Source: Gammaproteobacteria bacterium
Lineage (GTDB): Bacteria; Pseudomonadota; Gammaproteobacteria; CAJXQU01
Reading direction: 5' to 3'
Assembly (NCBI GenBank): GCA_965238175.1
Contig: CBDEGZ010000003.1
Location: 576,001-640,000, forward strand
DNA: 64,000 nucleotides
The translations under genes were made by a program, and so were the position numbers. The notes below the pieces were generated by a model that was given only the letters and a program-made list of their open reading frames with translations, did not search any database and was not told where the DNA came from. This document shows positions 38,251-55,823 of this stretch, piece after piece. Position 1 is the first letter of the stretch; the number at the start of each line of letters is the position of its first letter.

Positions 38251-38484
38251 ATGCAAGTTTCAAAATGGGGCAATAGTCTCGCGATCCGTATACCCATCGC
38301 CATTATTGAAGCCTTGAAGCTCCGCGAAGGCGACGATATTGAAGTTCTAATTGCGGATGACCGTGTATTCAAGGTGAAGAAAAAACTTGGTAAAGAGGAT
38401 TTGCTCGCGCAGTTACGTAAGTTTCGGGGGAAACTACCAGACGATTTTAAATTCGACCGTGATGAGGAAAATGGCCGAAACTAA
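38251..38484 (+). CDS. AbrB/MazE-type antitoxin (VapB)
   Basis: MQVSKWGNSLAIRIP...LREGDDIE; aggagg RBS. Confidence 0.9.
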   Translation: MQVSKWGNSLAIRIPIAIIEALKLREGDDIEVLIADDRVFKVKKKLGKEDLLAQLRKFRGKLPDDFKFDRDEENGRN

Positions 38485-38881
38485 AGTATTTATCGATACA
38501 AACGTCTTACTCTATCTTCTCTCAAGCGATGAAGAAAAGGCGGGCCGCGCTGAAGCTATTCTACAGTCCGGTAGTTCTATCAGTGTCCAGGTCTTAAATG
38601 AAATAGTCAATGTCGCTCGTCGCAAGCTTGCCCTGCCTTGGGAAGAGATTGCCGAATTTTCTGATCTCATTCGGGCATTCTGTCCTGTTAAACCCTTAAC
38701 TACTGAGACACATGATAAAGGCCGTTATATCGCTGAGCGATACAAGCTTAATGTGTATGACGCAATGATTGTGGCTGCAGCATTGTTGGCAGACTGTAAA
38801 ATCCTGTATTCGGAAGATATGCAGGATAGCATATTAATAGATGATCAACTTCGGATCACCAACCCTTTTAACCTCAAATAA
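38471..38881 (+). CDS. PIN-domain toxin (VapC)
   Basis: VFIDTNVLLY, SVQVLNE, YDAMIVAAA, LYSEDMQ; overlaps the antitoxin stop; start taken as ATG 38471. Confidence 0.9.
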   Translation: MAETKVFIDTNVLLYLLSSDEEKAGRAEAILQSGSSISVQVLNEIVNVARRKLALPWEEIAEFSDLIRAFCPVKPLTTETHDKGRYIAERYKLNVYDAMIVAAALLADCKILYSEDMQDSILIDDQLRITNPFNLK

Positions 38882-39576: not shown

Positions 39577-42500
39577 TTGAACATGCACCGCATATTTGCC
39601 ACCCCCAGAACGCTACTTCCAAGCATCCTTCTCCTGAGTTTTTTGAGCCTAACCAGTCAATCTACTATCGGTGCAAGTGTTAACTTTGAAGAAATGGTAA
39701 CAGGAGGTTCAAGCGGCTCCAGTAGAGTACAAACGTCCAGTAATGTTACTGCAGCGAGCGATCATTTGTATCTGGCCGCCATTACCAGCAAATCTTACAA
39801 AACAGTGACGTCAGTCACTGGTCTCGGACTTACCTGGTCGGAAGTACTCACACAATGTGGAGGCCGAAACCAGACAGGCGTGACGGTCTGGAAAGCACAA
39901 GGTACTCCAAGTGGCCCTGGCCCCGTGAGTGCAACATTATCGGGCTCGGCCAACAATGCGGCTATCGCCGTATCGCGCTATTCCGGTGTGGCGTTGAGCA
40001 ACCCGATAGGGAATACGGTTTCTGACAATAGCAACGGTATTGGAGGTGGTTGCTCTGGCGGTGTAGATACAGACGCCTATAGTTTTAGCTTAACCACGAC
40101 CGCAAGTGACTCGTTGGTTTATGGTGCGATCAGTATGCGCAATAAAACCCATACACCCGGCGCAGGTTATACAGAGCGCGTCGCCTTTGTTCAAGGCAGT
40201 GGTGGCGGTACAGCATCTGTTGCCGTGATGGAACGAGCGACTAATAGCCCATCATCGACAATCATTGATGGCGGATTCAGCAGTTCAGTGGACTATGGAG
40301 TCATCGGGATAGAGATAAAACCCGTAGGGAACAACAATACCGCACCAGACGTCACCAACCCAGGCAACCAGACAGGAACAGTCAATACAGCCATCACATC
40401 GTTACAAATTAATGCTACTGATAGCGACAACGGTGACATCCTGACGTTTAGTGACAATGGCAACAGCCTGCCTGCGGGCTTAAGTATTAGCAGTAGCGGT
40501 TTGATTACGGGAACACCGATCACGGTGAGTAATTACAACGTCACTATCAACATCAGTGATAATACCGATATCACCCCGACCAGTTTTGATTGGAACATCA
40601 GTCCGGCAACGAATAATAATAGTGCCCCCACGATAACTACGATTGGTGCACAGACTGCCACCAGTGGAACGAGCAAAACCATTAACGTAACGGCCACTGA
40701 CAGTGATAGCAGCGACACCTTAAGTTTTAGCTTAGGAAGCGGCCCAAGTTTTGTTAGCTTAACAGACAACGGTAATCGAACAGCTACCATCACGGTTGGT
40801 GCAGGTAGTACCGTAGGTAACCATAATATTACGGTCAATGTCAGTGATGGTAATAACGGCAATGACAGTGGAAGCTTTGTCTTAACTGTTTCCTCCACGG
40901 GCAGCAGTAGTTGTGGACCCCTAACCCAGGAAGCTGAAGCAGGAATCTTAAGTGGTGATTTTGAGATAAGTGACAACAGCTCTGCCAGTGGCGGACAGAT
41001 TGTGGAAGTCCCCGCCGACCCTTCCTACTATACTCAACAAGGAGTTACAGAACACTATGTAGAGCATTGCTTCAATGTCACCCAAGTAGGTACCTATCGA
41101 ATAGTCGGTACCGCGAAAGGATCCGGCAGCAATGACAACTCCTTCCGCGTTACCATGAATGACCAGCCGAGCGATGGCCATGCTTGGTCCTATACTCACA
41201 GTAATGGGTTTGTAACTGAAGAGATTAGTGGTGGTAATGGCAGTGGAGATGTAGAAGAGTTTTTCCTGAACACAGGGGACAACACCGTGCGATTTTATCT
41301 GCGTGAAGACGGCGCCCAGCTTGATAAAATCAGCCTCGTTTTACAGGGCAGTGGTAACACCGTGCCAAACGTGACCAACCCAGGTAACCAGACAGGTACC
41401 GTCAATACGGCCATCACACCATTACAGATTAATGCCACAGATGATGACGGTGACATTCTGACATTTAGCGAAAGTGGTAACAGCTTACCAGCGGGTCTAA
41501 GTATCAGTAGTAGCGGTCTGGTTATGGGAACACCGACAACAGCAAGTAACTACAACGTCACCATCAACGTCAGTGATAATGACAACACTACCCCAACCAG
41601 TTTTGATTGGAATATCAATCCTGCTGGTGGTGGCGGTAGCTGTGGCCCTCTGACCCAGGAAGCTGAAACCGGAACGTTAAGTGGTGCTTTTGGCCTAGTG
41701 GCAGACAGTGCCGCCAGTGGCGGACAATATGTCGAAGTGCCAGCTGACACTACCTCCACGGGTTCAGCACCATCGAGTAATTATGCCGAATATTGCTTTA
41801 ATGTCACCCAAGCCGGCACCTACCGAATTGAAGGCACCGCCCGCGCATCAAACAGCTCATACAACTCCTTCCGCGTGACCGTGAACGACAACCCAAGCAG
41901 TGGTCATGCCTGGGCCTTCAGCCACGGTAATGGCTTTGTGACCGAAGAAATAGCCGGTGGCAATGGCAGTGGCAGCCCCGAAGACTTCAGCCTAAACGCC
42001 GGCGACAACACCGTGCGCTTCTACCTACGCGAAGACGGTGCTCAACTGGACAAAGTCCGCCTTGTCCTACAAGGTGGCGGTAACACCGCCCCCAGTGTCA
42101 CCATCAGCAACCCCAACAACGGCACCAACGTCACCCAAGGCAGCAATATAACCTTAACCGCCACCGCCAATGACACCGAAGACGGCAGCCTAACCAACAC
42201 TATCAGCTGGAGCTCAAACCACGATGGCAGCTTAGGCACCGGTGGCAGCGTGAGCCTAAGTAATTTAAGTGCAAACACCCATACGATAACCGCCAGCGTC
42301 ACCGACAGTGGCGGATTGTCTGGAAACAGCACTATCAGTCTTACCGTCACCGTCACGACTACCGGTGGCAGTACCGTCACCGACATCATCGTCGACAACA
42401 GCGATAACAACACCCACACAACCGGCACCTGGTTAAACTCAAGCACAACACCAACACACGATGGAAGCAACTCTGTTTATAGCAATACCAATGGCAGCTT

Positions 42501-44376
42501 TCGGTGGACACCGAACATTATCACCGCCGGAGAATACACCGTCTATGCCTGGTGGACCTATTACGCAAGCCGACCTTCGGCCGCGTCCTACACCCTTCAA
42601 CACAATGGTGGCAGCAGTGTGGTGACCAAAGCCCAGAACGATCAATCACTGGGCGGACAATGGGTTGAATTAGGCACCTACACCTTCGCCGCCGGTAGTG
42701 CAGGCTATGTTGAACTCACCAGTAACACCAGCGGTAACTTCAGTGCCGATGCAATTAAATTAGTCCATGGTGGTGGGAGTAGGCCGAGCAGTAGTAATGC
42801 TGATCCAGTAATCAGCACAATTGGTACCCAAACGGCGACGGTGGGCAGTAGCAAGACCATCAATGTGAGTGCCAGCGACAGTGATAGTGGTGACACCTTG
42901 AGCTTTATTCTGGAGAGTGCGCCGAGTTTTGTGAGCTTGACCGACAATGGCAATCGCACCGCCACTCTCGCTGTGAGTAGCAACAGTACATCAGGTCATC
43001 ACAACATTGTTGTGAGTGTACGTGATGCTAACGGTAGCAGTGACAGCGAGAGCGTTGTGTTGACAGTGAGTGGTCAAATTGCCGCAAACCTCGTTGACTG
43101 GCAAGTAGTTGGAACGAATGATTTTGATGGCGATGGCAAGTTCGACACCTTGTTACACAACTTCAGTACGGGTGAAGTTTGGATGTATCTCATGGACGCG
43201 GCTCAAGTGAGCACGAGTGCCCATGTTACCAATGTTGGCGCGAATTGGCGCGTTGCAGGAACGGGTGATTTTAATGGCGACGGCAAAGCGGATGTTCTGT
43301 GGCGAGAAACAATCACACATAAGACCCGAGTCTACCTGATGAATGGAACAACGGTGAGTGCAGATCAAGCGGTCAGTAATGCTACGGAACTTCCAGAGTG
43401 GCAGATAAGAGGCGTCGATGATTTTGACGGTGATGGTAAAGCAGATATTTTGTGGCGCAATATCAATACAGAACGAAGCTGGATGTACTTAATGAATGGT
43501 TCCACCATCGTTAGTCAGGGGATTGTCGCTGATCACGGACCTAATTGGAGAATTAAAGGGACAGGTGATTTTAATGGCGATGGCAAGGCCGATATCTTAT
43601 TTAGAAATACGGTATCAGACAAGAATATTATCTTCCTGATGAACGGCAACAGCATCTTGCAGCAAAGCGCAGAGCTCACGTTTGCCGCCTTGGTTTGGGA
43701 AGTTCGCGGTGTTGCTGACTTCAATGGCGATGGTAAAGCAGACATCCTGTGGCGACACAAGACGACCGGTGAAAATCGGATCTATATGATGAATTCCTTC
43801 ACGGTAACGTCCAACCAGAGCGTGAATACAGAAGCGGATCTCGCCTGGAAGATTGTGGGTGTCGGTGATTTTAATGGCGATGGTAAATCGGATATCTATT
43901 GGCGTTATGACACGGATGGTCAGCACCGTTTGTACTTAATGAATGGCGCTAGCATCAATGCGAGTGTGCTTATCGATCAAACCCTTCCTCAGCAGACACT
44001 TACGGTTAGTGTTTCCACGCTCTCCTTTACATTAGACGAAGGGACTACTGGAACGCAGAGCATCTTTTTTACTAGCACGAGCAATGACGGTGTGAGTAGT
44101 CTACCTGACTTAATATCGCTAGAGGGATGGTTATCGTCAACGAATGGAAGATTTTCAAATGGCGCCAAGATCACGGTTGATACGACGGGATTAGCACTAG
44201 GCACCTACACCAGTGATGTCATCGCAATATTAGCGAATCATACAACGGCCACGATACGCGTAACGTTAGAGGTCACGCAAGCATCAGGCCTAGGCCCAGG
44301 ACCCGTCCTCGTCTTTGTCGAAAACGACTGCCCTACTGAGCCGGATGTTGCGTTCCCAACGCCCCTGACACCCTAA
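39577..44376 (+). CDS. Large secreted multidomain adhesin-like protein (putative Ig, cadherin-like, CBM-like, golvesin-like and FG-GAP/VCBS repeats)
   Basis: Sec signal; 2x NPGNQTGTVNTAIT..LPAGLSISSSG; 2x CGPLTQEAE...LREDGAQLDK; 2x TIG.QTAT...PSFVSLTDNGNRTAT; IIVDNSD...YTVYAWW; 6 clear DFNGDGKADILW-type repeats. Confidence 0.9.
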   Translation: MNMHRIFATPRTLLPSILLLSFLSLTSQSTIGASVNFEEMVTGGSSGSSRVQTSSNVTAASDHLYLAAITSKSYKTVTSVTGLGLTWSEVLTQCGGRNQTGVTVWKAQGTPSGPGPVSATLSGSANNAAIAVSRYSGVALSNPIGNTVSDNSNGIGGGCSGGVDTDAYSFSLTTTASDSLVYGAISMRNKTHTPGAGYTERVAFVQGSGGGTASVAVMERATNSPSSTIIDGGFSSSVDYGVIGIEIKPVGNNNTAPDVTNPGNQTGTVNTAITSLQINATDSDNGDILTFSDNGNSLPAGLSISSSGLITGTPITVSNYNVTINISDNTDITPTSFDWNISPATNNNSAPTITTIGAQTATSGTSKTINVTATDSDSSDTLSFSLGSGPSFVSLTDNGNRTATITVGAGSTVGNHNITVNVSDGNNGNDSGSFVLTVSSTGSSSCGPLTQEAEAGILSGDFEISDNSSASGGQIVEVPADPSYYTQQGVTEHYVEHCFNVTQVGTYRIVGTAKGSGSNDNSFRVTMNDQPSDGHAWSYTHSNGFVTEEISGGNGSGDVEEFFLNTGDNTVRFYLREDGAQLDKISLVLQGSGNTVPNVTNPGNQTGTVNTAITPLQINATDDDGDILTFSESGNSLPAGLSISSSGLVMGTPTTASNYNVTINVSDNDNTTPTSFDWNINPAGGGGSCGPLTQEAETGTLSGAFGLVADSAASGGQYVEVPADTTSTGSAPSSNYAEYCFNVTQAGTYRIEGTARASNSSYNSFRVTVNDNPSSGHAWAFSHGNGFVTEEIAGGNGSGSPEDFSLNAGDNTVRFYLREDGAQLDKVRLVLQGGGNTAPSVTISNPNNGTNVTQGSNITLTATANDTEDGSLTNTISWSSNHDGSLGTGGSVSLSNLSANTHTITASVTDSGGLSGNSTISLTVTVTTTGGSTVTDIIVDNSDNNTHTTGTWLNSSTTPTHDGSNSVYSNTNGSFRWTPNIITAGEYTVYAWWTYYASRPSAASYTLQHNGGSSVVTKAQNDQSLGGQWVELGTYTFAAGSAGYVELTSNTSGNFSADAIKLVHGGGSRPSSSNADPVISTIGTQTATVGSSKTINVSASDSDSGDTLSFILESAPSFVSLTDNGNRTATLAVSSNSTSGHHNIVVSVRDANGSSDSESVVLTVSGQIAANLVDWQVVGTNDFDGDGKFDTLLHNFSTGEVWMYLMDAAQVSTSAHVTNVGANWRVAGTGDFNGDGKADVLWRETITHKTRVYLMNGTTVSADQAVSNATELPEWQIRGVDDFDGDGKADILWRNINTERSWMYLMNGSTIVSQGIVADHGPNWRIKGTGDFNGDGKADILFRNTVSDKNIIFLMNGNSILQQSAELTFAALVWEVRGVADFNGDGKADILWRHKTTGENRIYMMNSFTVTSNQSVNTEADLAWKIVGVGDFNGDGKSDIYWRYDTDGQHRLYLMNGASINASVLIDQTLPQQTLTVSVSTLSFTLDEGTTGTQSIFFTSTSNDGVSSLPDLISLEGWLSSTNGRFSNGAKITVDTTGLALGTYTSDVIAILANHTTATIRVTLEVTQASGLGPGPVLVFVENDCPTEPDVAFPTPLTP

Positions 44377-44482
44377 AGGATACACACACAACAACCGATA
44401 AAGACAGCCGCCTCAACACATTGTGCTGAGGAAGCCTAAAGAGACACGGCACAGACGTGCCACACACGACAGGAAAATGCAG

Positions 44483-47400
44483 ATGACACGCCAAACACAG
44501 ACAGGCCTTGGAACTCACCCACGCAGAGTTAACGCTTTTGTTGCCAGCTTAATTTTCGCCTTAATGTCATTAACCACATCGGTGATGCAAGCGGCAGTGC
44601 CGGGCCTCACCCCGGGAGAGCTGAGTGTTGGTCAGTCGGGTGCGGCAGAATACAATGTGCCGATTGCAGTGCCACCGGGCACGGCTGGCATGGCACCGAT
44701 CTTATCGTTGAACTACAGCAGCAACAGCGGCAATGGGCCGCTAGGGGTCGGGTGGTCATTAAGTGGTCTATCGGCGATTACCCGCTGTCCACAGACCCTG
44801 GCACAAGATGGACAAATACGCGCAGTGAAGTTTGACACTCAGGATAAGTTTTGTCTGGATGGCCAGCGTCTAGTCGTCTCAAACGGCGGTGCCTATGGTG
44901 CCAATGGTACACAATATCGCACTGAGATGGATAACTTTAGTTTGATTACTTCGCACGGCAGTGGCTCAGGCTCACCTGTCAGTGGACCAAACTACTTCAC
45001 CGTCAAAACCAAAGCCGGTCAAACGATGTTTTACGGCACGACAACGGACTCAAACATTGACAGCCTCAACGGCGGACACGTGCGCACCTGGGCCTTAAAC
45101 CAGCTCCACGACACGGTCGGTAACTACATCAATTTCACTTATGAAGAAGATACCGACAAGCAAGATTACCGGATAGCGCGGATAGATTACACCGGCAACG
45201 TTAATGGCAGGGGCCCCTACAGCTCGGTACGGTTTGCGTACATGCCACGGCCAAGACTGGCCAAAGGTTACATTGCAGGCCACCCCTTTGCACAACGTAA
45301 GCTGATGACAAACATCAAGACCTATGCAGGTGAGACGCAGGTGAAAGACTATCGGCTGCATTATGAGATGACCGGTGTGGTGGGGCAACCGCGCATCGAA
45401 GAAATCAAAGAGTGTGATGGTGGTGGTCAGTGTTTTAATCCGTTGACGTTTGACTGGTCGCCGGAGTTATTTGGTTTTGTTGGCGCACAAAGCCTTGCAG
45501 ATGTGCCCCTTAAAGAAAGTCATGGTTTCCAGTGGGTGGATCATAATGGCGATGGTAAAACCGACTTTTGTTATATCGCCAAGTCCAATGAATTGCGCTG
45601 TCACCTCTCGACCTCCACTTTGGATGGCGGCAACGAGTTCAATCGTACACCAGTCAGATCAGCATCCACTATTGATAAGGGCTATGAAGAGGGAAGAGAA
45701 TGGGTGGATGTAAATGGTGATGGACGGGTGGATTTTTGTCGTTTAGTGGTGGATGGGTCTAGCAACAAATATATGGCATGCAACGCATCCACTGGCAATG
45801 GTTTTAATAATACGTTCTACAGTAGTATCTTAGCTGACGGTGGAGGTCAGTCAGAAGGTCGCCGATGGGTGGATTTTAATGGTGATGGACGAGCGGATTT
45901 TTGTCGGGTGACAGGATCTAGCAGTGCCGCCTGTACGCTCTCAACCGGTACTGGCTTTGGTCAGACTATTATTGGCACAGGTTTAACTTATGGAACCGGT
46001 GCGAATGGAAAAAATATCCGTGACTGGGAAGACGTCAATGGCGATGGTCTGGTGGATTTTTGTCGGACGCTGTCTGATAAAAGCAAAACGTGTAATTTTT
46101 CCACGGGTAGCGGGTTTGATCTTACTCCACATCAAACGGCAGCCAATACGGTGGGAACGAGCCTTAGCTTTGTGGGAGGAACGAACCCCAACCAAAATCG
46201 CTGGATCGACTTCAATGGTGACGGCAATAAAGATCTCTGTGTTGTACAAAGGGAAGGAGGTGAGAGGTACTCTGAGGAACGTCGAATAGTTCCGAATTTA
46301 GGCTATCCTATTCATCATAATATCATTGGTGAAGTGACTTATACAACAAAATGCACTTTGTTCACTGGGGTAGGTTTCGCACCTATTGCTATCGAATCAG
46401 AGCCGCTTGTCATCCCTGAACAATATTGTCAGGGTCGGTTCTGCACTCCTGAAGGCCTTGGAGTCGATTTTAAATGGAAAGATGTCAACAATGATGGGCT
46501 TGGCGATGTGTGCTTTAGGGTTGACAAAGGACGTTCTGGGTGTTTTTTTTCTGAAGGGCATCGCTTCCACTCTCTTATGAGTGTAACAGGTATAGTGTTT
46601 GGGGACAGCCGATTAATTGATGCGAACTTCGCCGATGTCAACGGCGATGCCATCGCTGATGCGTGCTATGTCCGATTTAGACGTAATCCGGACAATGACG
46701 ATCAAATCAACTGCAACATCGGCAACACCCGCCCCCAGATGCGCATTATCAAAGTCACCAACAGCCTTGGTAGCCCCACCGAGATTGAATACAAACCGAT
46801 GACCGACAGCAGCGTCTACAGTAAATCTGCGGATGTGGTTCCGAAAACAACAGGCTACCCTTACCTTGACGTCCAAGCCCCGATGTACGTAGTCTCCAAG
46901 GTTAAAAATGACAATGGCCTCGGCCTCGGCATCACCAACGACGTCGACTACACCTATGCAGGCGCCAAAGTCCACCTAAAAGGCCGTGGTTTTGCTGGTT
47001 TTCGTTGGATGTTTGCCTACAACAGAGCCCAAGGCACCTATGCGGCGACCGAGTTCCATCAAGACTTCCCACTCGCCGGCATGGTCGCCTACACACGTAG
47101 CAACCTGATTGCAGACAATAGCCTGATTAGTCAAACCAACAACACCTATAACGTTGTGGCAAGAACCGACGGCAGCTATTTTCCCTATCTTCAAACCAGT
47201 AACCAAGTCACATACGAACTCGGCGGAGCCATGGTCAAACAAACCGTTACAGACTACGTCTACGATGATTATGGTAACCCGATCTCGATTAAAGTGGCCA
47301 CCGCAGGCCTCGACCAAAATACCTTCCGCACAGAAACCACCAACACCTACGACGCGTCCAGTACCGCCATCAGCAAATGGTACCTAGGCCGCTTAACCAC

Positions 47401-50400
47401 CACCGCCGTCACGCAAACCGCCAACGGCAAGACCGCAACCCGTAAATCAGCGTTTGAATACGACATCAATGGTCACGGCATGCTGATGAAAGAAATCATC
47501 GAGCCGAATAACCCCGCACTTCGATTAGAAACCGCCTATCAATACGACGCCTACGGTAACAAAACCCGCGTCACCGCCTTGGGCGGCAGCGGATCTACCG
47601 CCATCACCGCCCGCAGCACACGAACAGAATATAGCGGCGGCGGTCACAACACCGGGCAATTCCCGATCAAAATCACCAATGCGATGGGCGAATCTGAAAC
47701 CCATACCTACGATGCGCGCTTTGGCGTCATGACCAAACTCACCGGCCCCAATGGTCTGGAGACCACCTGGCAATACGATAGCTTTGGACGCAAGATAAAA
47801 GAGACACGGGCAGATAGCACGACAACCACCTTTACTCGTAACTGGTGTGCTAAATACTGTAAGACCTCCCTGACCACCCAAAGCACTGGCAGTGCGCCTG
47901 CTCTGGAAGCCTTTGACCGACTCGGCCGAATTCAATATGTCAATACCTATGGTCTTGGAAATGATCTGTCTGGCAGCAATGTCTACACAGATCTAAATAT
48001 CATTAACCCCCGCATTATCAGTGTAGCAACCCAATACAATATTCGCGGTGAAATCAAACGAACCTCACAACCCTTCTATCTTCAGAGCCCCATTCACTGG
48101 ACCAACTTCACCTACGACGCCCTCGGCCGGCCGCTAACCGAAACCGACGCCAACGGCACCACCGGTTATGAATATAAGGGACTAACATCAACCCTCACCA
48201 ACCGCCTCAACCAAAAAACCACCCGGCGAGTTAATGCGCGTGACGAATTGATCCAAACCACCGACAACCTAGGCTTCAACACCTATTACCAATATGATGC
48301 ACAGGGCAACCAAACCCAAGTCACTGACCACCTCGGCAACATCACCACCATTGACTACGACGCCCGTGGTCGCAAAATCGCCATGAACGACCCCGACATG
48401 GGCGACTGGGAATACAGCTACAACGCCCTCGGAGAGCTGATAAGCCAAACCGACGCCAAAGGCCAAATCACCCGCATGGAATACGATATTCTAGGGCGCA
48501 TGATCACACGCACAGACGCGGAATGTAACAGCTTCTGGGTCTATGGCTCACACAGCAACACCGGCGCAAGTGATAAGGCCATCGGCAAACTCATCTACAG
48601 CCAAAAAGGCCAGCAAGAAAAAATCTTCACTCGCTACGACAGCCTAGGCCGTCCGAATGAAATTGAAACAAGACTACAGTTTGAAGCCACCAACAAAACC
48701 TACCTCACCCAAACAAATTACGACACGCTCGGACGAGTACAAGACATCACCTATCCGGCCAGCAACGACTACCCAACAGGCCTCGTAGTCAGAAACCACT
48801 ACGACGCCAACGGCCATATGCACAAAGTCACCGGCCCCAACAACATCACCTACTGGCAAGCCACCAAACAAAATGCGCGAGGCCAGATAACCGAGTTCCG
48901 TATGGGCAATGGCGCCACCGAAACCCAACGGTCTTATAATGCAATAAACGGCCTGGTAAGCAACATCAACACCCGTAACGATAATGGAACTGACAACATT
49001 CAGAAACTTGGCTTTACCTTTGACGTCGCCGGCAACCTCAAAACCCGCCGAGGCTACGACCAAGGCAATAACACCAACCTCGAAGAAAACTTCCATTATG
49101 ACGGCATCAATCGCCTCATCGTGTCACAGCTTGGCGATGGGTCACATCGAAAGCAATACGACTACGACGCGCTCGGCAACCTCACCTTCAAAACCGGGGT
49201 TGGCACCTACGACTACACCAACGGCCGTCCACATGCGGTGAGCAACACCTCGATTGGGAGTAAACAATACCAATACGACGACAATGGCAACATGATGAGC
49301 GGTGATGGTCGAACCATCACCTGGTCACCGTACAACAAACCGATCAAAATTGAGAAAGACGGTGTACAAACCGCCACCCAATTTGACTACGGCGCGAACC
49401 GCAACCGCATTCGGCAGGTAAATGATCAAAAAATCATTTATTACGTCAACGGCCTGTTTGAGCAGGAATACGATGGCACCACCACCACCGACGTGCACTA
49501 CATCAAAGCCGGTGGCAGCACCATTGCGATTGTTAAATCCAAAGGCACCAACGACCCACTAGAAACCCGCTACCTGCACAAAGACCACTTAGGCGGCATT
49601 GAGTCGATTACAAATGAACAAGGTAACCTAGTCCAACAGTTTAGCTATGACCCGCATGGCAAACGCCGGGCGGTTAACTGGACCGATGATGACAATGTCA
49701 GCAACCCGGCTATTTATCAATTTGACACCCAACGTGGCTTTACCGGGCATGAACACCTGGACGAGGTGGGGCTAATTCACATGAACGGCCGAGTCTATGA
49801 CCCGACGCTTGGACGGTTTATCAGTGCAGATCCGTTTGTGCAGTTCCCGGACAATGGCCAGTCATTGAACCGCTATTCGTATGTGTTGAATAATCCGTTG
49901 AGTTATAGTGACCCGAGTGGTTTCTTGTCTTTGGGCTTTTTAAAAAAAGCTTTTAAGGTTGTGGCGAGTTATTTTATCGCGGTAATCCCCGGGGTTAATG
50001 TATTCGTAGCTGGTTTTCTGATTGGTTTTTTAAATGGAGGCACTTTAAAATCAGGATTTATTGGTGCAGTGACGATGGGCGCATTCCAGAAACTGGGAGG
50101 TGCCGGTGCAATTGCAGGGAAAATTGGAGGTTTTACAGGTGATGTTGTCGAGGTCGTGGCTCATGGTGTTGTTGGAGGTGTCTCTGCCATCGCCCGTGGT
50201 GGTAGGTTTATCCAGGGGTTCTTGCCTGCCGGGTTGAGTAGTGCAACGAGCTTGTCTGGTTTCTTAAGGAACTTAGATGATGTGACGCAAGGTTTTGCGC
50301 AGGCTGTTATTGGTGGAACCGCTTCTGTGTTGGGTGGCGGTAAGTTCGCAAATGGGGCGATTACGGGGGCGTTTGTTTATGCGGCGGGGAGGGTTGGGCA

Positions 50401-53400
50401 GGCGAGTGCTGACGGTAATATCTGTAGTAGACGCCCAATCAACATCGCTACCGGTGAGAAGTACCTGACCATGCTGGATTATAAAGCCGCTGGCGCAAGC
50501 CAGCTTAAATTTGAGCGTTACTACAGTAGTCATGCAAAAGAAAAAACATCGTTAGGTTACGGTTGGCGTTCCAATTTTGATAAGAAACTCCGTTTTGAAG
50601 GGGTTGCAATGGGGATCCCATGGAAGGTTATCTATACCAAGACTAATCGTGAAGAAGTGGTTTTCTCACAAAATGATGAGGGCAACTGGATCACCTCAAG
50701 CGATACGTTAGAAAGCCTTCAGAAAACCGAAGCTGGTTGGCAGCTAACCGATGCCAGTGGCACGGTTGAAACCTTTAATACGGACGGTCAGTTTGAGACT
50801 GTTGAAAAACGCGGTGGTTATCAACAAGCGCTGTCATACAATGATAACGGTCAGCTTGTACAAGTGACCGACAGCTTCAATGTTAGCTTGAACTTTACAT
50901 ATAACCGTAAAGGCTTGCTGGAGAGCATGAGCGATCCAGAAGGCAATGTAACGCACTATCGCTACAATCATACCAAACAAGTCCTGGCACAAGTTCTCTA
51001 TCCGGATGAAACAGAAACCTTAGCGGATAACCCTTACAAACGATACTTCTATCGGGATAAACGCTTCCCTACCGCCATTACCGGGATTGAAAACGAGCTG
51101 GGTCAACGCATCCACTCAATGGCCTATGATGGACAAGGCCGCGCAATCTTAAGTGAACTCGGTGACTCCGGTGAACGTGTTGATATTGTCTTCCACAAAG
51201 GTGTCAATGCAGCTAACAAGAGCAGCACTGTACGCAACTCCCTAGGCCGTGAAACTAAATACTTCTTCGATGCAGATAATCGGCCACTCTCCGTTGAAGG
51301 TCACGCCACCAAAACCTGTATCGCCTCCAATCAAGGTTATACCTACGATGAGAATGGCAACATTGAGACCAAGACCGATTGGAACGGCGTAGTGACGCGA
51401 TACCAATATAACGATCGCAATCTTGAAATCCTGCGCATCGAAGCCGAAGGCACCGACAGCGAACGTGTTGTTACGACTTCATGGCATCCACACTACCGGA
51501 TCCCAACGCAAGTTGTAGCACCAGGTAACACCACTGAGTTTGATTATGATCAACGTGGATTACTCACCAAACGGACCGAGCGCGATACCTTATCCGCACG
51601 TACTGCCTGGCAAGAACTATTGTCAGTCTATCCAGAACGCGTCACCACCTATGCCTACAATGCACAAGGGCTGGTTGAAAAAATCGACGGACCGCTGACT
51701 GGCGAAGACGACGTACTCACCTTTGCTTATGACGCCATGGGTAATCGCACACAAGTGAACAACTCACTAGGTCATCAAAGTGAAACCCGTGCGTTTGATC
51801 AAAATGGACGACCATTACTCGTGGTCGATGCCAATGGCGTTGAAACCCATCTTGAATACAATGCGCGCGGCTGGCTTGCACGTAAAACCATCAAAGGGAA
51901 TGACGGTGAAGCCACCACACAGTATGAATACGCACACAGTGGCACCTATGAAGGCCAAGGGCTGATATCAAAAGTCACCTTACCAAACCAAAAAACAGTG
52001 AACTACGATTATGATAGCGCCTATAAATTGATCGGCCTGCATAATAGCCAAGGCGAGCGAATTGAATACACCCTTGACCTTGAAGGCAACCGCATTGCCG
52101 AAACCACCTTTAATGCCAGTAACGAACTGGTACGCACACAACGACGCGTGTTTGACGAACTCAGCCGACTGCTATCCAGCATCGGTGCAGATCAACAAAC
52201 CACTCGTTACCATTACGACAAAAACGGCAACCTAACCGGCAGAGTGGATCCACTCAATAATGAAACCCACTACGCCTTTGATGCACTCAATCGACTGATT
52301 GCCACCACCGATGCCAATGATGGCGTTGTGGCAACGGCGTATAATGGCCAGGGGCAAGTCACCTCTGTGACAGATCAACGCGGTCTGACCACCGAATACC
52401 ACTACAATGGCTTTGGTGAGAAGGTGGCTCAGATTAGCCCGGACACCGGCAAAACCGTGTTTGACTACAACAAAGCAGGACAATTGATCAAACAGATAGA
52501 CGCACGGGAAATCGAGACACAATACCACTATGACGCGATAGGACGAGTCACACAGATCCACTACCCCGCCGCCAATGACGATGACATTTACTATGCCTAT
52601 GATCAACAACGTACGGGTACCGATCATGCGATTGGACAGTTGACTGAGGTCACTGATCCAGCGGGCACCACCGAGTACGGTTATAACCAACATGGGCAAG
52701 TAAACCGTCAGGACTACACCCTCGGCGGTGTTGCATACCATACACAAAACCACTACAACGCCGCTGGCGAATTAACCGCCATGACCTACCCAAGCGGACG
52801 CGTGGTCAACTACCAACATGATAACCTGGGCCGCATTCAGGGAGTCACCACCCAAGCCTCAGCGACAAACCGTGCACAAACGGTCGTTAATCACCTTGAC
52901 TACCACGCCTTTGGCCCTGTCTCGCAAATGGACTATGGTAATGGCGCACAGATCAATATTGATCGCGATAAAGACTACCGCGTCACCCATATCCGGGTCA
53001 CCGACAGCAATAACGATGTCGCCTACTATGACGCCGGCTATCACTATGATGATGCCAGCAATATTAAACAGATCGACGATCAGATAGAAACCACCGACAG
53101 TCAAACCTTTGATTATGATGCACTCTATCGTTTAACCCGTGCAGAAGGACAATACGGTCAAATCGACTACGATTATGACGGTGTCGGCAATCGCCTGGAA
53201 CGACGGTTGAATGATAAATTGAGTGATACAGACACGCTAGACAGCCTGATAGAGACCTATGATTACGCCCATGACAGTAATCGTTTGATCTCCGTGGCCA
53301 AGCAAAAAGGCCAACATAGCACACAGCGCAGCCTGGATTATGATCCGGTAGGGAATATCATCCATGACAGCCGCTCAAGTGAAAATAATCTGGCCTTAAA

Positions 53401-54418
53401 CTACGGCGCCAACAACCGCCTGCAACAGGTGGATAAACAGACGGAAGGTGAGACAACCTCGGCCTATGTGTATAACGCCAAAAACCAACGTGTGATCAAA
53501 ACGGTCACACAAGCGGACGGTTCGCAAACCACGACGCACTTCCATTACAACGCGCTCGATCAATTGATTGCAGAAACCAGCAACAATGGCGCGGTGTTTA
53601 AGGAATACCTGTATGCCGGTGGTACGCGTGTAGCGATGGTGGATTATGCACAGGATAATGCGGGGCAGCTGGTGTTTATCCATAATGATCACTTAGGCAC
53701 ACCGAAGTTGATGACCGATGGTGACATGCGCGTGGTCTGGCAGGCACAAAGCTTACCGTTTGGTGAAACCCGTGCGTCGGTGGCGGATGTGAAACAATCA
53801 TTGCGCTTCCCGGGGCAGTACAAGGATGAGGAAACGGGGTATCATTATAATTATCATCGGGATTATGATCCGACGTTGGGAAGGTATATTCAGTCGGATC
53901 CGATTGGGTTGCTGGGTGGGGTTAATACGTTTGGGTATGTGGGGGGGAATCCGGTGACATCTTTTGATCCTAAAGGCCTAGTTGAATGGACTGGCCGAGT
54001 TGAATATATAAATGCTGGTCAAGTTGCTGGTACTATTAGAGCACGTTTTTTCTTAGAGTCTGAGGCTGTGAAAGGAGTGAAATGGAGAGTAAGGGTTAAT
54101 GCGGCCGGATCAGGTAGTGTAATTGGCAAAGGCCCTTATGCGGTTTCAGCATCAAAAATCACATTTAATGATGGGTTAACGTCTACTGGACCAACTGTTT
54201 TTGAAGGTAATTTTGTTATGGCAAATGCTGGTTTTTCTACACCTCTTGGTGGTGTTACTTATGGTGGGGTGATACTGGGAAATGCTGCTTCAAAAGGCTT
54301 CTCATTTTCAATAGGTATAGAGGTTCCCGGTGCATTAGATATGCATGGGGAGTCATCATTAGTCTCTGCAGAACAAATATTTGTTGAAGATGAAAATCAA
54401 CAACTGATGTGTCCTTAG
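44483..54418 (+). CDS. Giant secreted Rhs/YD protein: SpvB-like N-terminus, Cys-paired FG-GAP repeats, Rhs core 1, Gly-rich linker, DUF6531-like domain, Rhs core 2, C-terminal toxin
   Basis: Signal peptide ending VMQA; GAAEYNVPIAVPPG..LSLNYSS..GWSL; core 1 ends NPLSYSDPSG (49910-49921); PINIATGEK..FERYYSS..GYGW; core 2 ends NPVTSFDPKG (53966-53977). Start could be 44477. Confidence 0.92.
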   Translation: MTRQTQTGLGTHPRRVNAFVASLIFALMSLTTSVMQAAVPGLTPGELSVGQSGAAEYNVPIAVPPGTAGMAPILSLNYSSNSGNGPLGVGWSLSGLSAITRCPQTLAQDGQIRAVKFDTQDKFCLDGQRLVVSNGGAYGANGTQYRTEMDNFSLITSHGSGSGSPVSGPNYFTVKTKAGQTMFYGTTTDSNIDSLNGGHVRTWALNQLHDTVGNYINFTYEEDTDKQDYRIARIDYTGNVNGRGPYSSVRFAYMPRPRLAKGYIAGHPFAQRKLMTNIKTYAGETQVKDYRLHYEMTGVVGQPRIEEIKECDGGGQCFNPLTFDWSPELFGFVGAQSLADVPLKESHGFQWVDHNGDGKTDFCYIAKSNELRCHLSTSTLDGGNEFNRTPVRSASTIDKGYEEGREWVDVNGDGRVDFCRLVVDGSSNKYMACNASTGNGFNNTFYSSILADGGGQSEGRRWVDFNGDGRADFCRVTGSSSAACTLSTGTGFGQTIIGTGLTYGTGANGKNIRDWEDVNGDGLVDFCRTLSDKSKTCNFSTGSGFDLTPHQTAANTVGTSLSFVGGTNPNQNRWIDFNGDGNKDLCVVQREGGERYSEERRIVPNLGYPIHHNIIGEVTYTTKCTLFTGVGFAPIAIESEPLVIPEQYCQGRFCTPEGLGVDFKWKDVNNDGLGDVCFRVDKGRSGCFFSEGHRFHSLMSVTGIVFGDSRLIDANFADVNGDAIADACYVRFRRNPDNDDQINCNIGNTRPQMRIIKVTNSLGSPTEIEYKPMTDSSVYSKSADVVPKTTGYPYLDVQAPMYVVSKVKNDNGLGLGITNDVDYTYAGAKVHLKGRGFAGFRWMFAYNRAQGTYAATEFHQDFPLAGMVAYTRSNLIADNSLISQTNNTYNVVARTDGSYFPYLQTSNQVTYELGGAMVKQTVTDYVYDDYGNPISIKVATAGLDQNTFRTETTNTYDASSTAISKWYLGRLTTTAVTQTANGKTATRKSAFEYDINGHGMLMKEIIEPNNPALRLETAYQYDAYGNKTRVTALGGSGSTAITARSTRTEYSGGGHNTGQFPIKITNAMGESETHTYDARFGVMTKLTGPNGLETTWQYDSFGRKIKETRADSTTTTFTRNWCAKYCKTSLTTQSTGSAPALEAFDRLGRIQYVNTYGLGNDLSGSNVYTDLNIINPRIISVATQYNIRGEIKRTSQPFYLQSPIHWTNFTYDALGRPLTETDANGTTGYEYKGLTSTLTNRLNQKTTRRVNARDELIQTTDNLGFNTYYQYDAQGNQTQVTDHLGNITTIDYDARGRKIAMNDPDMGDWEYSYNALGELISQTDAKGQITRMEYDILGRMITRTDAECNSFWVYGSHSNTGASDKAIGKLIYSQKGQQEKIFTRYDSLGRPNEIETRLQFEATNKTYLTQTNYDTLGRVQDITYPASNDYPTGLVVRNHYDANGHMHKVTGPNNITYWQATKQNARGQITEFRMGNGATETQRSYNAINGLVSNINTRNDNGTDNIQKLGFTFDVAGNLKTRRGYDQGNNTNLEENFHYDGINRLIVSQLGDGSHRKQYDYDALGNLTFKTGVGTYDYTNGRPHAVSNTSIGSKQYQYDDNGNMMSGDGRTITWSPYNKPIKIEKDGVQTATQFDYGANRNRIRQVNDQKIIYYVNGLFEQEYDGTTTTDVHYIKAGGSTIAIVKSKGTNDPLETRYLHKDHLGGIESITNEQGNLVQQFSYDPHGKRRAVNWTDDDNVSNPAIYQFDTQRGFTGHEHLDEVGLIHMNGRVYDPTLGRFISADPFVQFPDNGQSLNRYSYVLNNPLSYSDPSGFLSLGFLKKAFKVVASYFIAVIPGVNVFVAGFLIGFLNGGTLKSGFIGAVTMGAFQKLGGAGAIAGKIGGFTGDVVEVVAHGVVGGVSAIARGGRFIQGFLPAGLSSATSLSGFLRNLDDVTQGFAQAVIGGTASVLGGGKFANGAITGAFVYAAGRVGQASADGNICSRRPINIATGEKYLTMLDYKAAGASQLKFERYYSSHAKEKTSLGYGWRSNFDKKLRFEGVAMGIPWKVIYTKTNREEVVFSQNDEGNWITSSDTLESLQKTEAGWQLTDASGTVETFNTDGQFETVEKRGGYQQALSYNDNGQLVQVTDSFNVSLNFTYNRKGLLESMSDPEGNVTHYRYNHTKQVLAQVLYPDETETLADNPYKRYFYRDKRFPTAITGIENELGQRIHSMAYDGQGRAILSELGDSGERVDIVFHKGVNAANKSSTVRNSLGRETKYFFDADNRPLSVEGHATKTCIASNQGYTYDENGNIETKTDWNGVVTRYQYNDRNLEILRIEAEGTDSERVVTTSWHPHYRIPTQVVAPGNTTEFDYDQRGLLTKRTERDTLSARTAWQELLSVYPERVTTYAYNAQGLVEKIDGPLTGEDDVLTFAYDAMGNRTQVNNSLGHQSETRAFDQNGRPLLVVDANGVETHLEYNARGWLARKTIKGNDGEATTQYEYAHSGTYEGQGLISKVTLPNQKTVNYDYDSAYKLIGLHNSQGERIEYTLDLEGNRIAETTFNASNELVRTQRRVFDELSRLLSSIGADQQTTRYHYDKNGNLTGRVDPLNNETHYAFDALNRLIATTDANDGVVATAYNGQGQVTSVTDQRGLTTEYHYNGFGEKVAQISPDTGKTVFDYNKAGQLIKQIDAREIETQYHYDAIGRVTQIHYPAANDDDIYYAYDQQRTGTDHAIGQLTEVTDPAGTTEYGYNQHGQVNRQDYTLGGVAYHTQNHYNAAGELTAMTYPSGRVVNYQHDNLGRIQGVTTQASATNRAQTVVNHLDYHAFGPVSQMDYGNGAQINIDRDKDYRVTHIRVTDSNNDVAYYDAGYHYDDASNIKQIDDQIETTDSQTFDYDALYRLTRAEGQYGQIDYDYDGVGNRLERRLNDKLSDTDTLDSLIETYDYAHDSNRLISVAKQKGQHSTQRSLDYDPVGNIIHDSRSSENNLALNYGANNRLQQVDKQTEGETTSAYVYNAKNQRVIKTVTQADGSQTTTHFHYNALDQLIAETSNNGAVFKEYLYAGGTRVAMVDYAQDNAGQLVFIHNDHLGTPKLMTDGDMRVVWQAQSLPFGETRASVADVKQSLRFPGQYKDEETGYHYNYHRDYDPTLGRYIQSDPIGLLGGVNTFGYVGGNPVTSFDPKGLVEWTGRVEYINAGQVAGTIRARFFLESEAVKGVKWRVRVNAAGSGSVIGKGPYAVSASKITFNDGLTSTGPTVFEGNFVMANAGFSTPLGGVTYGGVILGNAASKGFSFSIGIEVPGALDMHGESSLVSAEQIFVEDENQQLMCP

Positions 54419-54436: not shown

Positions 54437-54748
54437 GTGAGAAGCATAATGACAGTTCATGATTATTTTGCACTTTTAATATTGGTTCAATTAGTGCTTT
54501 TTGCACTCGCTTTTGGGCAGCTGGAACGGAATCATCCTATAGAGCACAATGAATTGGGTGGCAGTAAAGCATTGCTTGGTTTCTTAAGCACAATGCGTTT
54601 CATTACTTTTTTTATGGCACTTAGATTTTTAAGGATGTCAGAAAAACCAGTACTTACTAATAGAGAATTGATTATATATTTTGGTTTTTTTATTTCTTCA
54701 TGGATAACTTTTGTAGGCTTGGTGTGGCTTTTGGTTGCGAGAATATAA
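54437..54748 (+). CDS. Probable cognate immunity protein (about 3 TM segments)
   Basis: Small AT-rich hydrophobic ORF directly after the Rhs C-terminus; ATG 54449 is an alternative start. Confidence 0.65.
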   Translation: MRSIMTVHDYFALLILVQLVLFALAFGQLERNHPIEHNELGGSKALLGFLSTMRFITFFMALRFLRMSEKPVLTNRELIIYFGFFISSWITFVGLVWLLVARI

Positions 54749-54801: not shown

Positions 54802-55050
54802 AGTTACATAGAGTTCTTCTATGAGGCGCGTCAAGATCAGGTTTCTGGCTACTATGCGGGCAATCTGGCTATCCAGAAGTTCCGCATGTCAAATATCAAA
54901 ACCTATAATGGTCAGATCTTGGTGCATGATTACCAGCTTGCGTATCTTCCTGAGCAAAGCGTCAATAGTAATTCTTACATAAAGACGCTGACACAATGTG
55001 ATGCCGCAGGTTTGTGTTTTAACCCAACAACCTTGGGCTGGAGTGCAGAG
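54802..55050 (+). pseudogene. Isolated fragment of a paralogous SpvB-type Rhs N-terminal region
   Basis: SYIEFFYEAR...GYYAG...MSNIKTYNG...DYQLAY...CDAAGLCFNPTTLGWS aligns by eye with Rhs segment 45221-45460 (SSVRFAY...GYIAG...MTNIKTYAG...DYRLHY...CDGGGQCFNPLTFDWS). Confidence 0.8.
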
Positions 55051-55077
55051 CAAAAAGAAACCAAGGGGTCAGCCATC

Positions 55078-55106
55078 TTGATATTTCACTTTGAAGCAAG
55101 TAATCT
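55078..55106 (+). promoter_or_regulatory. Sigma70-like promoter for a probably leaderless RAYT transcript
   Basis: TTGATA-N17-TAATCT, then 6 nt, then ATG 55113; no SD sequence. Confidence 0.55.
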
Positions 55107-55112
55107 ACCCAA

Positions 55113-55823
55113 ATGGCGCGCCTACCAAGAATAGTTATCCCAGACCAAGCACTGCATATCATGCACAGAGGCAATAATCGTCAAGTCATCTTTGAAACAG
55201 AAGAAGATTTTATAAGGCTTAAGGATGATATTAACCACACCTTATTAAAAGCAGACTGTCAGCTTCATGCCTATGTGATAATGAATAACCACCTACACTT
55301 ACTACTTACACCCAAAGATAAAGAGCAGCTCAAAGTCTTTATGCAATCGTTGAGTAATCGCTATGTGCGTTACTTCAATGCTGTACGAAAACGAACCGGC
55401 ACTCTTTGGGAAGGACGCTATAAATCTTGCTTAATCGACAGTGACAACTACCTGTTCACGCTCTATAAATACATCGAAATGAACCCGGTGAAAGCCAATA
55501 TTGTTGATAACTTAGAAGCCTATCGATGGTCGAGTTATCACCACAATGCGTTAGGAAAGAAAGACAAGCTCATCGCTACCCATCCACTCTATAAGAAATT
55601 AGGAAAGACATTTGATCAACAAACAGCTGCCTACAAGGCTTTGTTTGAAGGGTTAGACCTATCGCAAGATGTTGACATTACCCAAGCGACTCAAAAGGGT
55701 GAGGTTTTTGGTAAGGCGGGTTTTCATACACAAATGGCTGCAAAATTATCGAGACCGACAAAATTAACCTCGCACGGTGGAGATAGGAAAAGTGAGGCTT
55801 ATCGAGATAATCATGCTGGCTGA
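55113..55823 (+). CDS. RAYT-like HUH (Y1) tyrosine transposase
   Basis: MARLPR...HIMHRGNNRQ.IF, AYVIMNNHLHLL (HUH motif), GTLWEGRYKS, YIEMNPV.A, YRWSSY. The stop codon lies inside the inverted end repeat. Confidence 0.9.
   Translation: MARLPRIVIPDQALHIMHRGNNRQVIFETEEDFIRLKDDINHTLLKADCQLHAYVIMNNHLHLLLTPKDKEQLKVFMQSLSNRYVRYFNAVRKRTGTLWEGRYKSCLIDSDNYLFTLYKYIEMNPVKANIVDNLEAYRWSSYHHNALGKKDKLIATHPLYKKLGKTFDQQTAAYKALFEGLDLSQDVDITQATQKGEVFGKAGFHTQMAAKLSRPTKLTSHGGDRKSEAYRDNHAG

Follow-up and report, generated by a model that had tools for sequence, protein, structure and literature searches.

Within a 64,000-nucleotide stretch of DNA from a member of the Gammaproteobacteria (GTDB lineage CAJXQU01; GenBank assembly GCA_965238175.1, contig CBDEGZ010000003.1, positions 576,001 to 640,000 of the forward strand; hereafter the window), we identified a single open reading frame (ORF) that encodes two complete Rhs units. 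This double layout is no artefact: the protein, P0001, represents a real and recurrent Rhs variant. Rhs and Tc cocoons are currently understood as one shell around one small unfolded toxin, and how the toxin exits and crosses a membrane is still open, above all for the large class of SpvB/propeller-type Rhs proteins that carry a signal peptide and have no known injector. With a complete second shell as apparent cargo, behind a conserved hydrophobic helical module, the present family raises the issue of what shell 1 truly encloses and offers a natural construct with which to answer it. We propose, with moderate confidence, that P0001 is a Sec-exported toxin of the TcdB/TcaC class with a second Rhs cocoon in its toxin slot, forming a two-shell complex of four pieces.

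Two Rhs units in one reading frame

The reading frame of P0001 is open across 9996 nucleotides, and a search of the whole genome placed both Rhs-associated cores (TIGR03696) inside one open frame of 3338 residues. The likely start is one of the ATG codons at residues 19 and 21 (nucleotide 44477 or 44483), and counting from these reproduces the length of ~3310 residues given in a preliminary description of this locus, which was made from the letters alone. That description had also placed the two core ends exactly (G1833 of NPLSYSDPSG ends at nucleotide 49921, G3185 of NPVTSFDPKG ends at nucleotide 53977, and 146 residues follow), and its claim of two complete Rhs units in a single ORF was confirmed by our domain and core searches. 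The features of the gene, in window coordinates, are these:

44423..54418, + strand: double-Rhs ORF (P0001), 3331 residues counted from the first GTG, no interruption
44528..44584, + strand: hydrophobic core of a Sec-type signal peptide (residues 36-54; Kyte-Doolittle 1.79; RR before, VMQA/A after; signal peptide called by eye)
44630..45160, + strand: SpvB-type N-terminal domain (residues 70-246; PF03534, E 8.6e-18)
45467..46732, + strand: FG-GAP/integrin-like β-propeller (residues ~349-770; Pfam FG-GAP_3, four stretches)
46733..49666, + strand: YD-repeat shell 1 (RHS_repeat and YD_repeat matches)
49667..49924, + strand: Rhs-associated core 1 (residues 1749-1834; TIGR03696, 75.2 bits; our own core hidden Markov model, 132 bits; end SADP...SYSDPSGF)
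49925..50434, + strand: pre-toxin linker (residues 1835-2004, 170 residues; Pfam DUF637 match, hydropathy, helical model)
50435..50602, + strand: DUF6531 N-terminal plug of shell 2 (PF20148 at residues 2004-2060, E 8.2e-17; starts P2005-INIATGEKY)
50603..53731, + strand: YD-repeat shell 2 (RHS_repeat matches)
53732..53980, + strand: Rhs-associated core 2 (residues 3104-3186; TIGR03696, 93.1 bits; DPIG-x19-DPKGL)
53981..54418, + strand: C-terminal tip (145 residues plus stop; all-β; no Pfam family)

With its YD repeats and its Rhs-associated cores bearing two conserved aspartates, P0001 is built as an Rhs/YD-repeat polymorphic toxin: RHS_repeat (PF05593) matched 15 stretches (Pfam, E 4.8e-97), YD_repeat (TIGR01643) 11 stretches (NCBIfam) and TIGR03696 (Rhs_assc_core) two stretches, both well above its cut-off of 32.5 bits, and the Pfam RHS family matched at residues 3085-3117. 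The protein also combines SpvB (PF03534), FG-GAP (PF13517) and a YD shell, as TcB-TcC proteins do; PF12256 (TcdB_toxin_midN), frequent in the homologues, had no match in P0001. Identity between the shell-1 and shell-2 halves is as low as 25%, and they therefore represent two different kinds of Rhs in tandem rather than a tandem duplication. There are three hydrophobic regions in the whole protein, one of them the signal peptide; all other hydrophobic windows fall in the linker.

Shell 1 is built like the TcdB/TcaC (TcB-TcC) proteins, a class described as having a signal peptide, SpvB, an integrin-like β-propeller and RHS repeats (Zhang et al. 2012, PMC3482391). It shares each of these elements together with the aspartyl-protease core end, but the cargo slot of P0001 contains a helical pre-toxin module and a whole second Rhs instead of one toxin domain. 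Shell 2 resembles the Rhs effectors of type VI secretion systems (T6SS; Tse5, Rhs1, RhsA and TseI), with which it shares a P-[VI]-x4-G-E plug, a YD shell, a DPxG-x19-DPxG core and a small tip. Where those effectors have an N-terminal spike adaptor, P0001 has another Rhs shell, and neither Pfam nor NCBIfam identified a PAAR, VgrG or prePAAR domain in it. P0001 has a hydrophobic segment immediately ahead of its plug, much as prePAAR effectors have transmembrane domains there.

Cleavage has been described in two such effectors. Tse5 is cut at K47|P48, P48 being the first residue of its DUF6531 plug, with residues 30-47 anchored in the shell, and at L1168|I1169 by D1141 and D1164 of the DPxG-x19-DPxG motif (PMC10684867). 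In Photorhabdus Rhs1, PVYVASGE marks the N-terminal cut, the transmembrane segments bound by EagR precede that cut, and the fragments remain associated (PMC8636562). The PINIATGE of P0001 resembles both PVYVASGE and PVSMVTGE, so that a DUF6531 plug with a cleavage signature is present. By analogy, we predict that P0001 cleaves itself after F1834 (core 1), directly before P2005 (the N-terminus of shell 2) and after L3186 (core 2).

Two Rhs regions in one chain have been reported in WapA-CT1 of Streptococcus suis, a Sec-exported protein of 3158 residues with two Rhs domains, each ending TDPSG, which experimentally gives four fragments; in the AlphaFold model its Rhs1-2 region forms a single column, closed by one DUF6531 lid above and one core below (PMC12704120). 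Both WapA-CT1 and P0001 exceed 3000 residues and have two Rhs regions with DPSG-type ends and one DUF6531 cleavage site. In WapA-CT1, however, DUF6531 stands before the first Rhs, whereas in P0001 it lies between the two, after a core and the 170-residue module; each Rhs of P0001 also has its own N-terminal closure and core, and the first is of the SpvB/propeller type. The arrangement of SpvB shell, pre-toxin module and DUF6531 shell was not described in the full-text literature searched (subscription journals and supplements lay outside it), nor was a mention of 'two RHS' or 'multiple RHS' found in 300,000 characters of the text of PMC3482391. The architecture, as the preliminary description had supposed, is uncharacterised in that literature, and we regard it as an undescribed variant of the Rhs polymorphic toxins.

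Recurrence, conservation and origin of the double layout

The preliminary description had raised the concern that the junction might be a misassembly or mask a stop codon, and had suggested inspecting reads across 49900-50450. Neither fault was seen: the frame is open, and in one of two sequencing runs that contain the stretch (X1), a Logan contig of 5280 nucleotides spans position 49808 to beyond 51400 with 0 differences. In the other run (X2), the assembly graph forks at 50044-50086 and 50377-50406, where the loose ends are the sequence of a paralogous gene of the same genome that shares an exact linker stretch of 350 nucleotides with the P0001 gene. Both left-hand branches consist of core 1 and linker, and the fusion is therefore kept under either pairing. 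Because the two runs are perhaps the source data of this assembly, they do not count as independent support.

Other copies of the layout were found by a homologue search with residues 1780-2280 of P0001 as the query, which listed 120 proteins (90%-identity clusters). Two cores in one protein, the pattern for which the preliminary description had advised a scan, occurred in 29 of the 119 other clusters, at 33-51% identity; these proteins are 2821-5285 residues long and their cores lie 1350-1390 residues apart. The layout recurs in a metagenome contig (L131), which has both cores in a 2819-residue frame open at its 5' end, and two additional proteins, P0011 and P0034, look like doubles cut at a contig end.

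The motifs of both units are conserved in an alignment of 30 doubles. The aspartates D1803 and D1830 of core 1 and D3159 and D3182 of core 2 are invariant (30/30), as are P1831 and G1833 of core 1, G3185 of core 2, and P2005, I2006, G2011 and K2013 of the P-I-x4-G-x-K sequence with which DUF6531 starts; a cysteine four residues ahead of P2005 is nearly invariant. Linkers in the other doubles measure 166-212 residues, with the exception of P0010 (76 residues), and the tips, of 97-168 residues, are mutually dissimilar.

Modular exchange, alongside this conserved architecture, can be observed within the genome itself. A paralogous locus outside the window (L001; G000:C3:908000-927900) encodes a single-shell Rhs of 2153 residues, P0003, which is 88.8% identical to P0001 over residues 1-1996 and then has an ordinary tail of ~160 residues. 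Window by window, the two proteins are 98-100% identical over residues 1-350 and ~800-1800, with 100% identity over the latter stretch (YD shell 1); they diverge over the first ~45 residues of the linker, are 100% identical again to residue ~1996, and are unrelated beyond. The propeller is the only long stretch of shell 1 in which they differ, with 35-68% identity in most 50-residue windows (one reaches 96%, the last 84%), a pattern that suggests a separately exchanged specificity part. The P0001 propeller is no closer to the propellers of other doubles than the P0003 propeller is: its median scores are 43.5 bits against doubles and 43.9 against singles, and those of P0003 are 44.7 and 45.6.

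On a FastTree phylogeny of the last 600 residues of shell 1 (121 rows), the double state requires eight changes, at least six of them forced by well-supported branches, as compared with ~27 for shuffled labels; with P0011 and P0034, probably truncated doubles, counted as single, the figure of eight is perhaps up to two too high. Shell 1 of P0001 groups with that of P0003 inside a supported set of 21 singles plus P0001. On a tree of the first 500 residues of shell 2, 29 doubles and three fragments (labelled doubles because they start with linker or core-1 sequence) separate from 56 single DUF6531 Rhs proteins with a branch support of 99. Shell 2 of the doubles is thus one specialised lineage of its own and, in the proteins sampled, exists only as a passenger: the closest shorter matches with a visible start (P0167, P0169 and P0170) begin in linker or core 1 and are pieces of doubles. 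These relationships point to movement of shell 2 among SpvB-type carriers, with recombination taking place where the pre-toxin module ends. Recombination behind such a module is the usual exchange route of Rhs tips, and here an entire Rhs can evidently serve as the 'toxin cassette' that is exchanged.

The preliminary description had offered the alternative that a Sec-exported carrier had captured a T6SS-type Rhs. Such a capture was not supported. TssC (PF05943) and Hcp (PF05638) had no match in this genome, which is an estimated 97.7% complete, while both controls matched in Escherichia coli; PAAR families were absent from the Pfam lists of the 120 nearest shorter shell-2 relatives listed; and the nearest stand-alone relatives of shell 2, which forms a separate lineage, are at most 37% identical to it, several of them beginning with N-termini that look by eye like signal peptides. 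The TcA families PF18276 and PF03538 likewise had no match in this genome, but were silent too in 14 control genomes.

The double layout is rare but recurrent, the rarity figures coming from samples and not from a census. Of 41 relatives searched, only the window's genome has the full junction (0 of the 40 others), and the junction was found in none of the 399 other genomes of the class that were scored (400 with the window's). Among metagenome loci, one of 85 core-bearing frames has the double layout, and the best 80 of 641 relatives in a contig scan included no double of this kind. A survey of cores in 401 genomes of the phylum gave no two in one frame among the 150 of 301 matches listed, which themselves include just one of the two cores of P0001; the tally also takes in the unpublished genome G768, on which no conclusion depends. 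The preliminary description had reckoned with the possibility that the architecture is already common and characterised; it proved recurrent (29 other clusters) yet rare, and was not characterised in the literature searched. In one metagenome-assembled genome of the Gammaproteobacteria (L040:17187-21035), a 1283-residue frame has two Rhs cores ~650 residues apart, a different kind of double that perhaps consists of fused orphan fragments.

The linker, the tip and a proposed mechanism

The preliminary description had recorded a linker of ~170 residues between the two units. The segment is present, but it is not a mere spacer: it is the conserved pre-toxin module of the single-shell relatives, in which it joins the SpvB-type shell to a small toxin of ~150 residues. 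By tblastn, at least 110 of its 170 residues were matched in 114 of the loci examined, and in a search with the junction alignment 77 of 78 metagenome loci matched core 1 and linker only. The linker is glycine-zipper-rich (20.6% glycine, abundant GxxxG motifs), has a net charge of +8, is most strongly hydrophobic at residues 1852-1870 and bears a conserved GGKFANGA motif near its end; by these features of its sequence it is membrane-like. Pfam DUF637 (PF04830) matched it at 28 bits (gathering cut-off 26.6; E 2.2e-6), a marginal and partial match covering only profile positions 101-166 of 168. DUF637 is listed as a pre-toxin domain of type V secretion systems (Zhang et al. 2012, PMC3482391), and the DUF637 domain of CdiA (PT637) is, like the linker, glycine-rich, directly ahead of an exchangeable toxin and a recombination joint; the carrier of CdiA, however, is a stalk of the filamentous haemagglutinin type where P0001 has an Rhs shell.

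An AlphaFold2 model of the linker, built from a 61-sequence alignment, contains seven helices (predicted local distance difference test, pLDDT, 81.9; predicted template modelling score, pTM, 0.64). Foldseek found no significant match to it (best E 0.84), and the best VIA score (Z 8.7) lies under the caution level of that tool for helical models (~13). The top VIA rows include Tim22/Tim23-type and other membrane helical proteins (Z 7-8.7), which we note as a lead only.

The tip at the other end of shell 2 has no Pfam match. A HMMER pass over 1.84 billion representatives identified 41 relatives, located at the C-terminal ends of orphan fragments and of otherwise ordinary Rhs proteins of the DUF6531 type, and a search of the ESM Atlas returned only unnamed clusters, at 0.91 and with low recognition. 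The tip model (pLDDT 92.5, pTM 0.86) is a closed β-barrel of eight strands that superimposes on Rhodococcus equi VapB with Z 10.2 and a root-mean-square deviation of 2.6 Å over 99 of 111 residues, and on VapG with Z 9.9, the next VIA row having Z 5.7; Foldseek likewise matched Vap proteins (probability 0.97, E 3.3e-3, TM-scores 0.31-0.49). As modelled, the tip has a Vap-like fold, a likeness at the level of fold only, with 8-13% sequence identity and no match of sequence family, and a common fold does not establish a common activity. Vap proteins are membrane-active. In the tip family, one cysteine close to the start is almost invariant and a C-x-C stands towards the end, a pattern suggestive of disulfide bonds in an exported protein.

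A candidate immunity gene follows the toxin gene by 19 nucleotides:

54437..54748, + strand: candidate immunity ORF, 103 residues, strongly hydrophobic at both ends, 19 nucleotides after the toxin stop

At locus L051, a tip homologue that is 46% identical is directly followed by an ORF of 94 residues of similar build. A membrane-acting toxin paired with a membrane immunity protein is a reasonable guess, and only that.

The capacity of shell 1 constrains how these parts could be arranged. The tail that follows the core is 247-360 residues long in 89 single-shell relatives (the median is 320 residues with all 91 rows counted), whereas in the 30 doubles 1429-1559 residues follow core 1 and 97-168 residues follow core 2; no tail lengths fall between the single and double ranges save those of two probably truncated doubles. 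The narrow range among the singles fits a limit set by the cavity, the capacity of Tc cocoons being roughly 30 kDa. These ranges uphold the argument of the preliminary description that a segment of ~1500 residues is too big to be cargo of shell 1; the module alone could sit inside.

Our proposal draws its cleavages, topology, secretion beyond Sec, target and toxin activity by analogy with the systems described above. The toxin slot of a TcdB/TcaC-class protein would be filled by a specialised DUF6531-type Rhs cocoon that encloses its own 145-residue β-barrel toxin. Three self-cleavages (after F1834, before P2005 and after L3186) would yield shell 1, linker, shell 2 and toxin, four pieces that would remain together. 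Only the linker (~17 kDa, net charge +8) would be housed and shielded in shell 1, much as Eag chaperones shield the transmembrane segments before the DUF6531 cut in T6SS Rhs effectors. Shell 2 would lie outside shell 1, tethered via the linker, the last residues of which probably reach into shell 2 in the manner of the N-terminal fragment of Tse5. At the target, the linker would insert into the membrane, after which the toxin of shell 2, probably a membrane-active β-barrel, would be released; protection of the producer would fall to the small membrane protein whose gene lies downstream. The suggestion in the preliminary description of a two-stage or two-cargo device remains a reasonable idea. 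More tentatively, P0001 may be a self-contained two-chamber device that works without a T6SS or a TcA needle, in which shell 1 is the chaperone and container of the linker, itself a membrane-inserting translocation module, shell 2 holds the toxin, the linker bridges the two lumens with an end in each, and the opening of shell 1 at a target membrane anchors and opens shell 2. The double family would bear on the pre-toxin module as the true cargo, on how a chain exits a closed YD shell and on how two shells cooperate.

Several points weigh against this proposal. Everything in it beyond the sequence rests on analogy, and it gives no account of how a chain that starts in shell 1 reaches an outside shell of 1200 residues, Tc-type cocoons being closed except at the propeller, or of the route across the producer's outer membrane. 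Holding the linker alone, shell 1 would be roughly half as heavily loaded as in single-shell relatives. The DUF637 match is marginal (28 versus 26.6 bits), the linker model has no significant structural match (Foldseek E 0.84; VIA Z 8.7), and we found no feature of the propeller specific to doubles. At position 29 the tip of P0001 has an alanine instead of the nearly invariant cysteine of its family and could be a decayed copy, and the 103-residue ORF and the 94-residue ORF of L051 match each other only at E 0.083 in pairwise BLASTP. The possible overcount of changes on the shell-1 tree belongs here as well.

The best-surviving alternative, which we nonetheless consider rather unlikely, is that shell 1 is only a carrier for export and folding: after the cuts at 1834 and 2004, shell 2 and its toxin would leave as an independent particle, the linker would be lost or act on its own, and the two shells would not cooperate at the target. 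Each of the three cleavage motifs is conserved, shell 2 is as complete as a stand-alone DUF6531 Rhs (plug, shell, core and tip), and its cassette moves across shell-1 backbones as a self-sufficient unit might. This lineage of shell 2 was not found alone, however: the closest shorter matches are pieces of doubles, and true stand-alone relatives reach at most 37% identity. The length and motifs of the linker are conserved among the doubles, which fits a role and not a spacer, and the cleavage products of the Rhs proteins studied so far remain together (PMC8636562).

A teneurin-like arrangement, in which core 1 is uncut, the chain exits through the wall of shell 1 and shell 2 stays permanently outside as part of one covalent, two-lobed protein, would solve the topology without a pore. 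In teneurins the C-terminal domain does lie on the outer surface of the YD shell (PMC8636562), and the families precomputed for the homologues include the Teneurin YD-shell family of Pfam. Nevertheless, the aspartates of core 1 and its DPSG(F/Y) end show little or no variation across the 30 doubles and are common to the singles, in which a cut at the core is needed to free the small toxin, and we judge the arrangement improbable.

The column modelled for the two Rhs domains of WapA-CT1 (PMC12704120) raises the further alternative that both YD regions of P0001 stack into one long barrel enclosing only the final tip. Between these regions, however, stand a core plug, a hydrophobic helical module of 170 residues and a DUF6531 plug, and over residues ~800-1800 shell 1 is 100% identical to that of the paralogue, which has a normal tail; each half is thus closed off, front and back, by elements of its own, and a single barrel is very improbable.

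That P0001 is a functionless accident (a gene in decay, the outcome of a recent recombination or a chimera of the assembly) is scarcely credible: Rhs fragments and recombination scars abound in the genome (an orphan core fragment, two split DUF6531 loci, an SpvB remnant and an IS200-type transposase), the tip lacks a near-invariant cysteine, and the junction is missing from the 40 relatives and 399 other class genomes searched, but the frame is open for 9996 nucleotides, 29 other clusters at 33-51% identity share the layout with L131 and keep all the motifs, and a read contig crosses the junction, with both alternative paths retaining the fusion.

Neighbouring genes and other Rhs loci of the genome

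The gene directly upstream of P0001 encodes a large protein with an N-terminus that resembles a signal peptide:

39577..44376, + strand: upstream gene P0002, 1599 residues from TTG; He_PIG immunoglobulin (Ig) domains, Golvesin_C, Big_9 and a C-terminal FG-GAP propeller

A copy of P0002 also precedes the paralogous Rhs (98.7% identity over residues 691-1599), where locus L001 has an Ig/propeller gene of 1345 residues ahead of P0003. P0002 is not a conserved partner, as no comparable match was found upstream of Rhs genes at other loci, and the good matches to it are limited to the paralogous locus and to inserts in the broken Rhs loci of this same genome. Farther upstream of the toxin locus, at 38387..38881, lies an ORF of 164 residues with a PIN domain (Pfam E 1.2e-15), which may be part of a toxin-antitoxin pair.

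At L001, P0003 is followed by a lipoprotein-like ORF of 147 residues, and the locus also contains an orphan Rhs C-terminal fragment of 877 residues with a third variant of the linker and a different tip. Two DUF6531-type Rhs loci elsewhere in the genome, L094 (C3:2001500-2013500) and L095 (C3:3175500-3194500), are split across several adjacent frames and carry inserts with 39-43% identity to the Ig/Golvesin region of P0002. A third fragment of shell 1, which matches residues 393-1454 of P0001 at 84% identity, is likewise present in L095.

Downstream, the G+C content drops to 0.39-0.45 from the tip onward. An ORF of 82 residues at 54886..55134 is similar to the end of the SpvB domain (CFNPTTLGWSAEQ; compare residues ~300-347 of P0001) and looks like what is left of a further Rhs gene. 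Directly adjoining it is a gene for an IS200-type Y1 transposase at 55113..55823 (Pfam E 1.6e-13).

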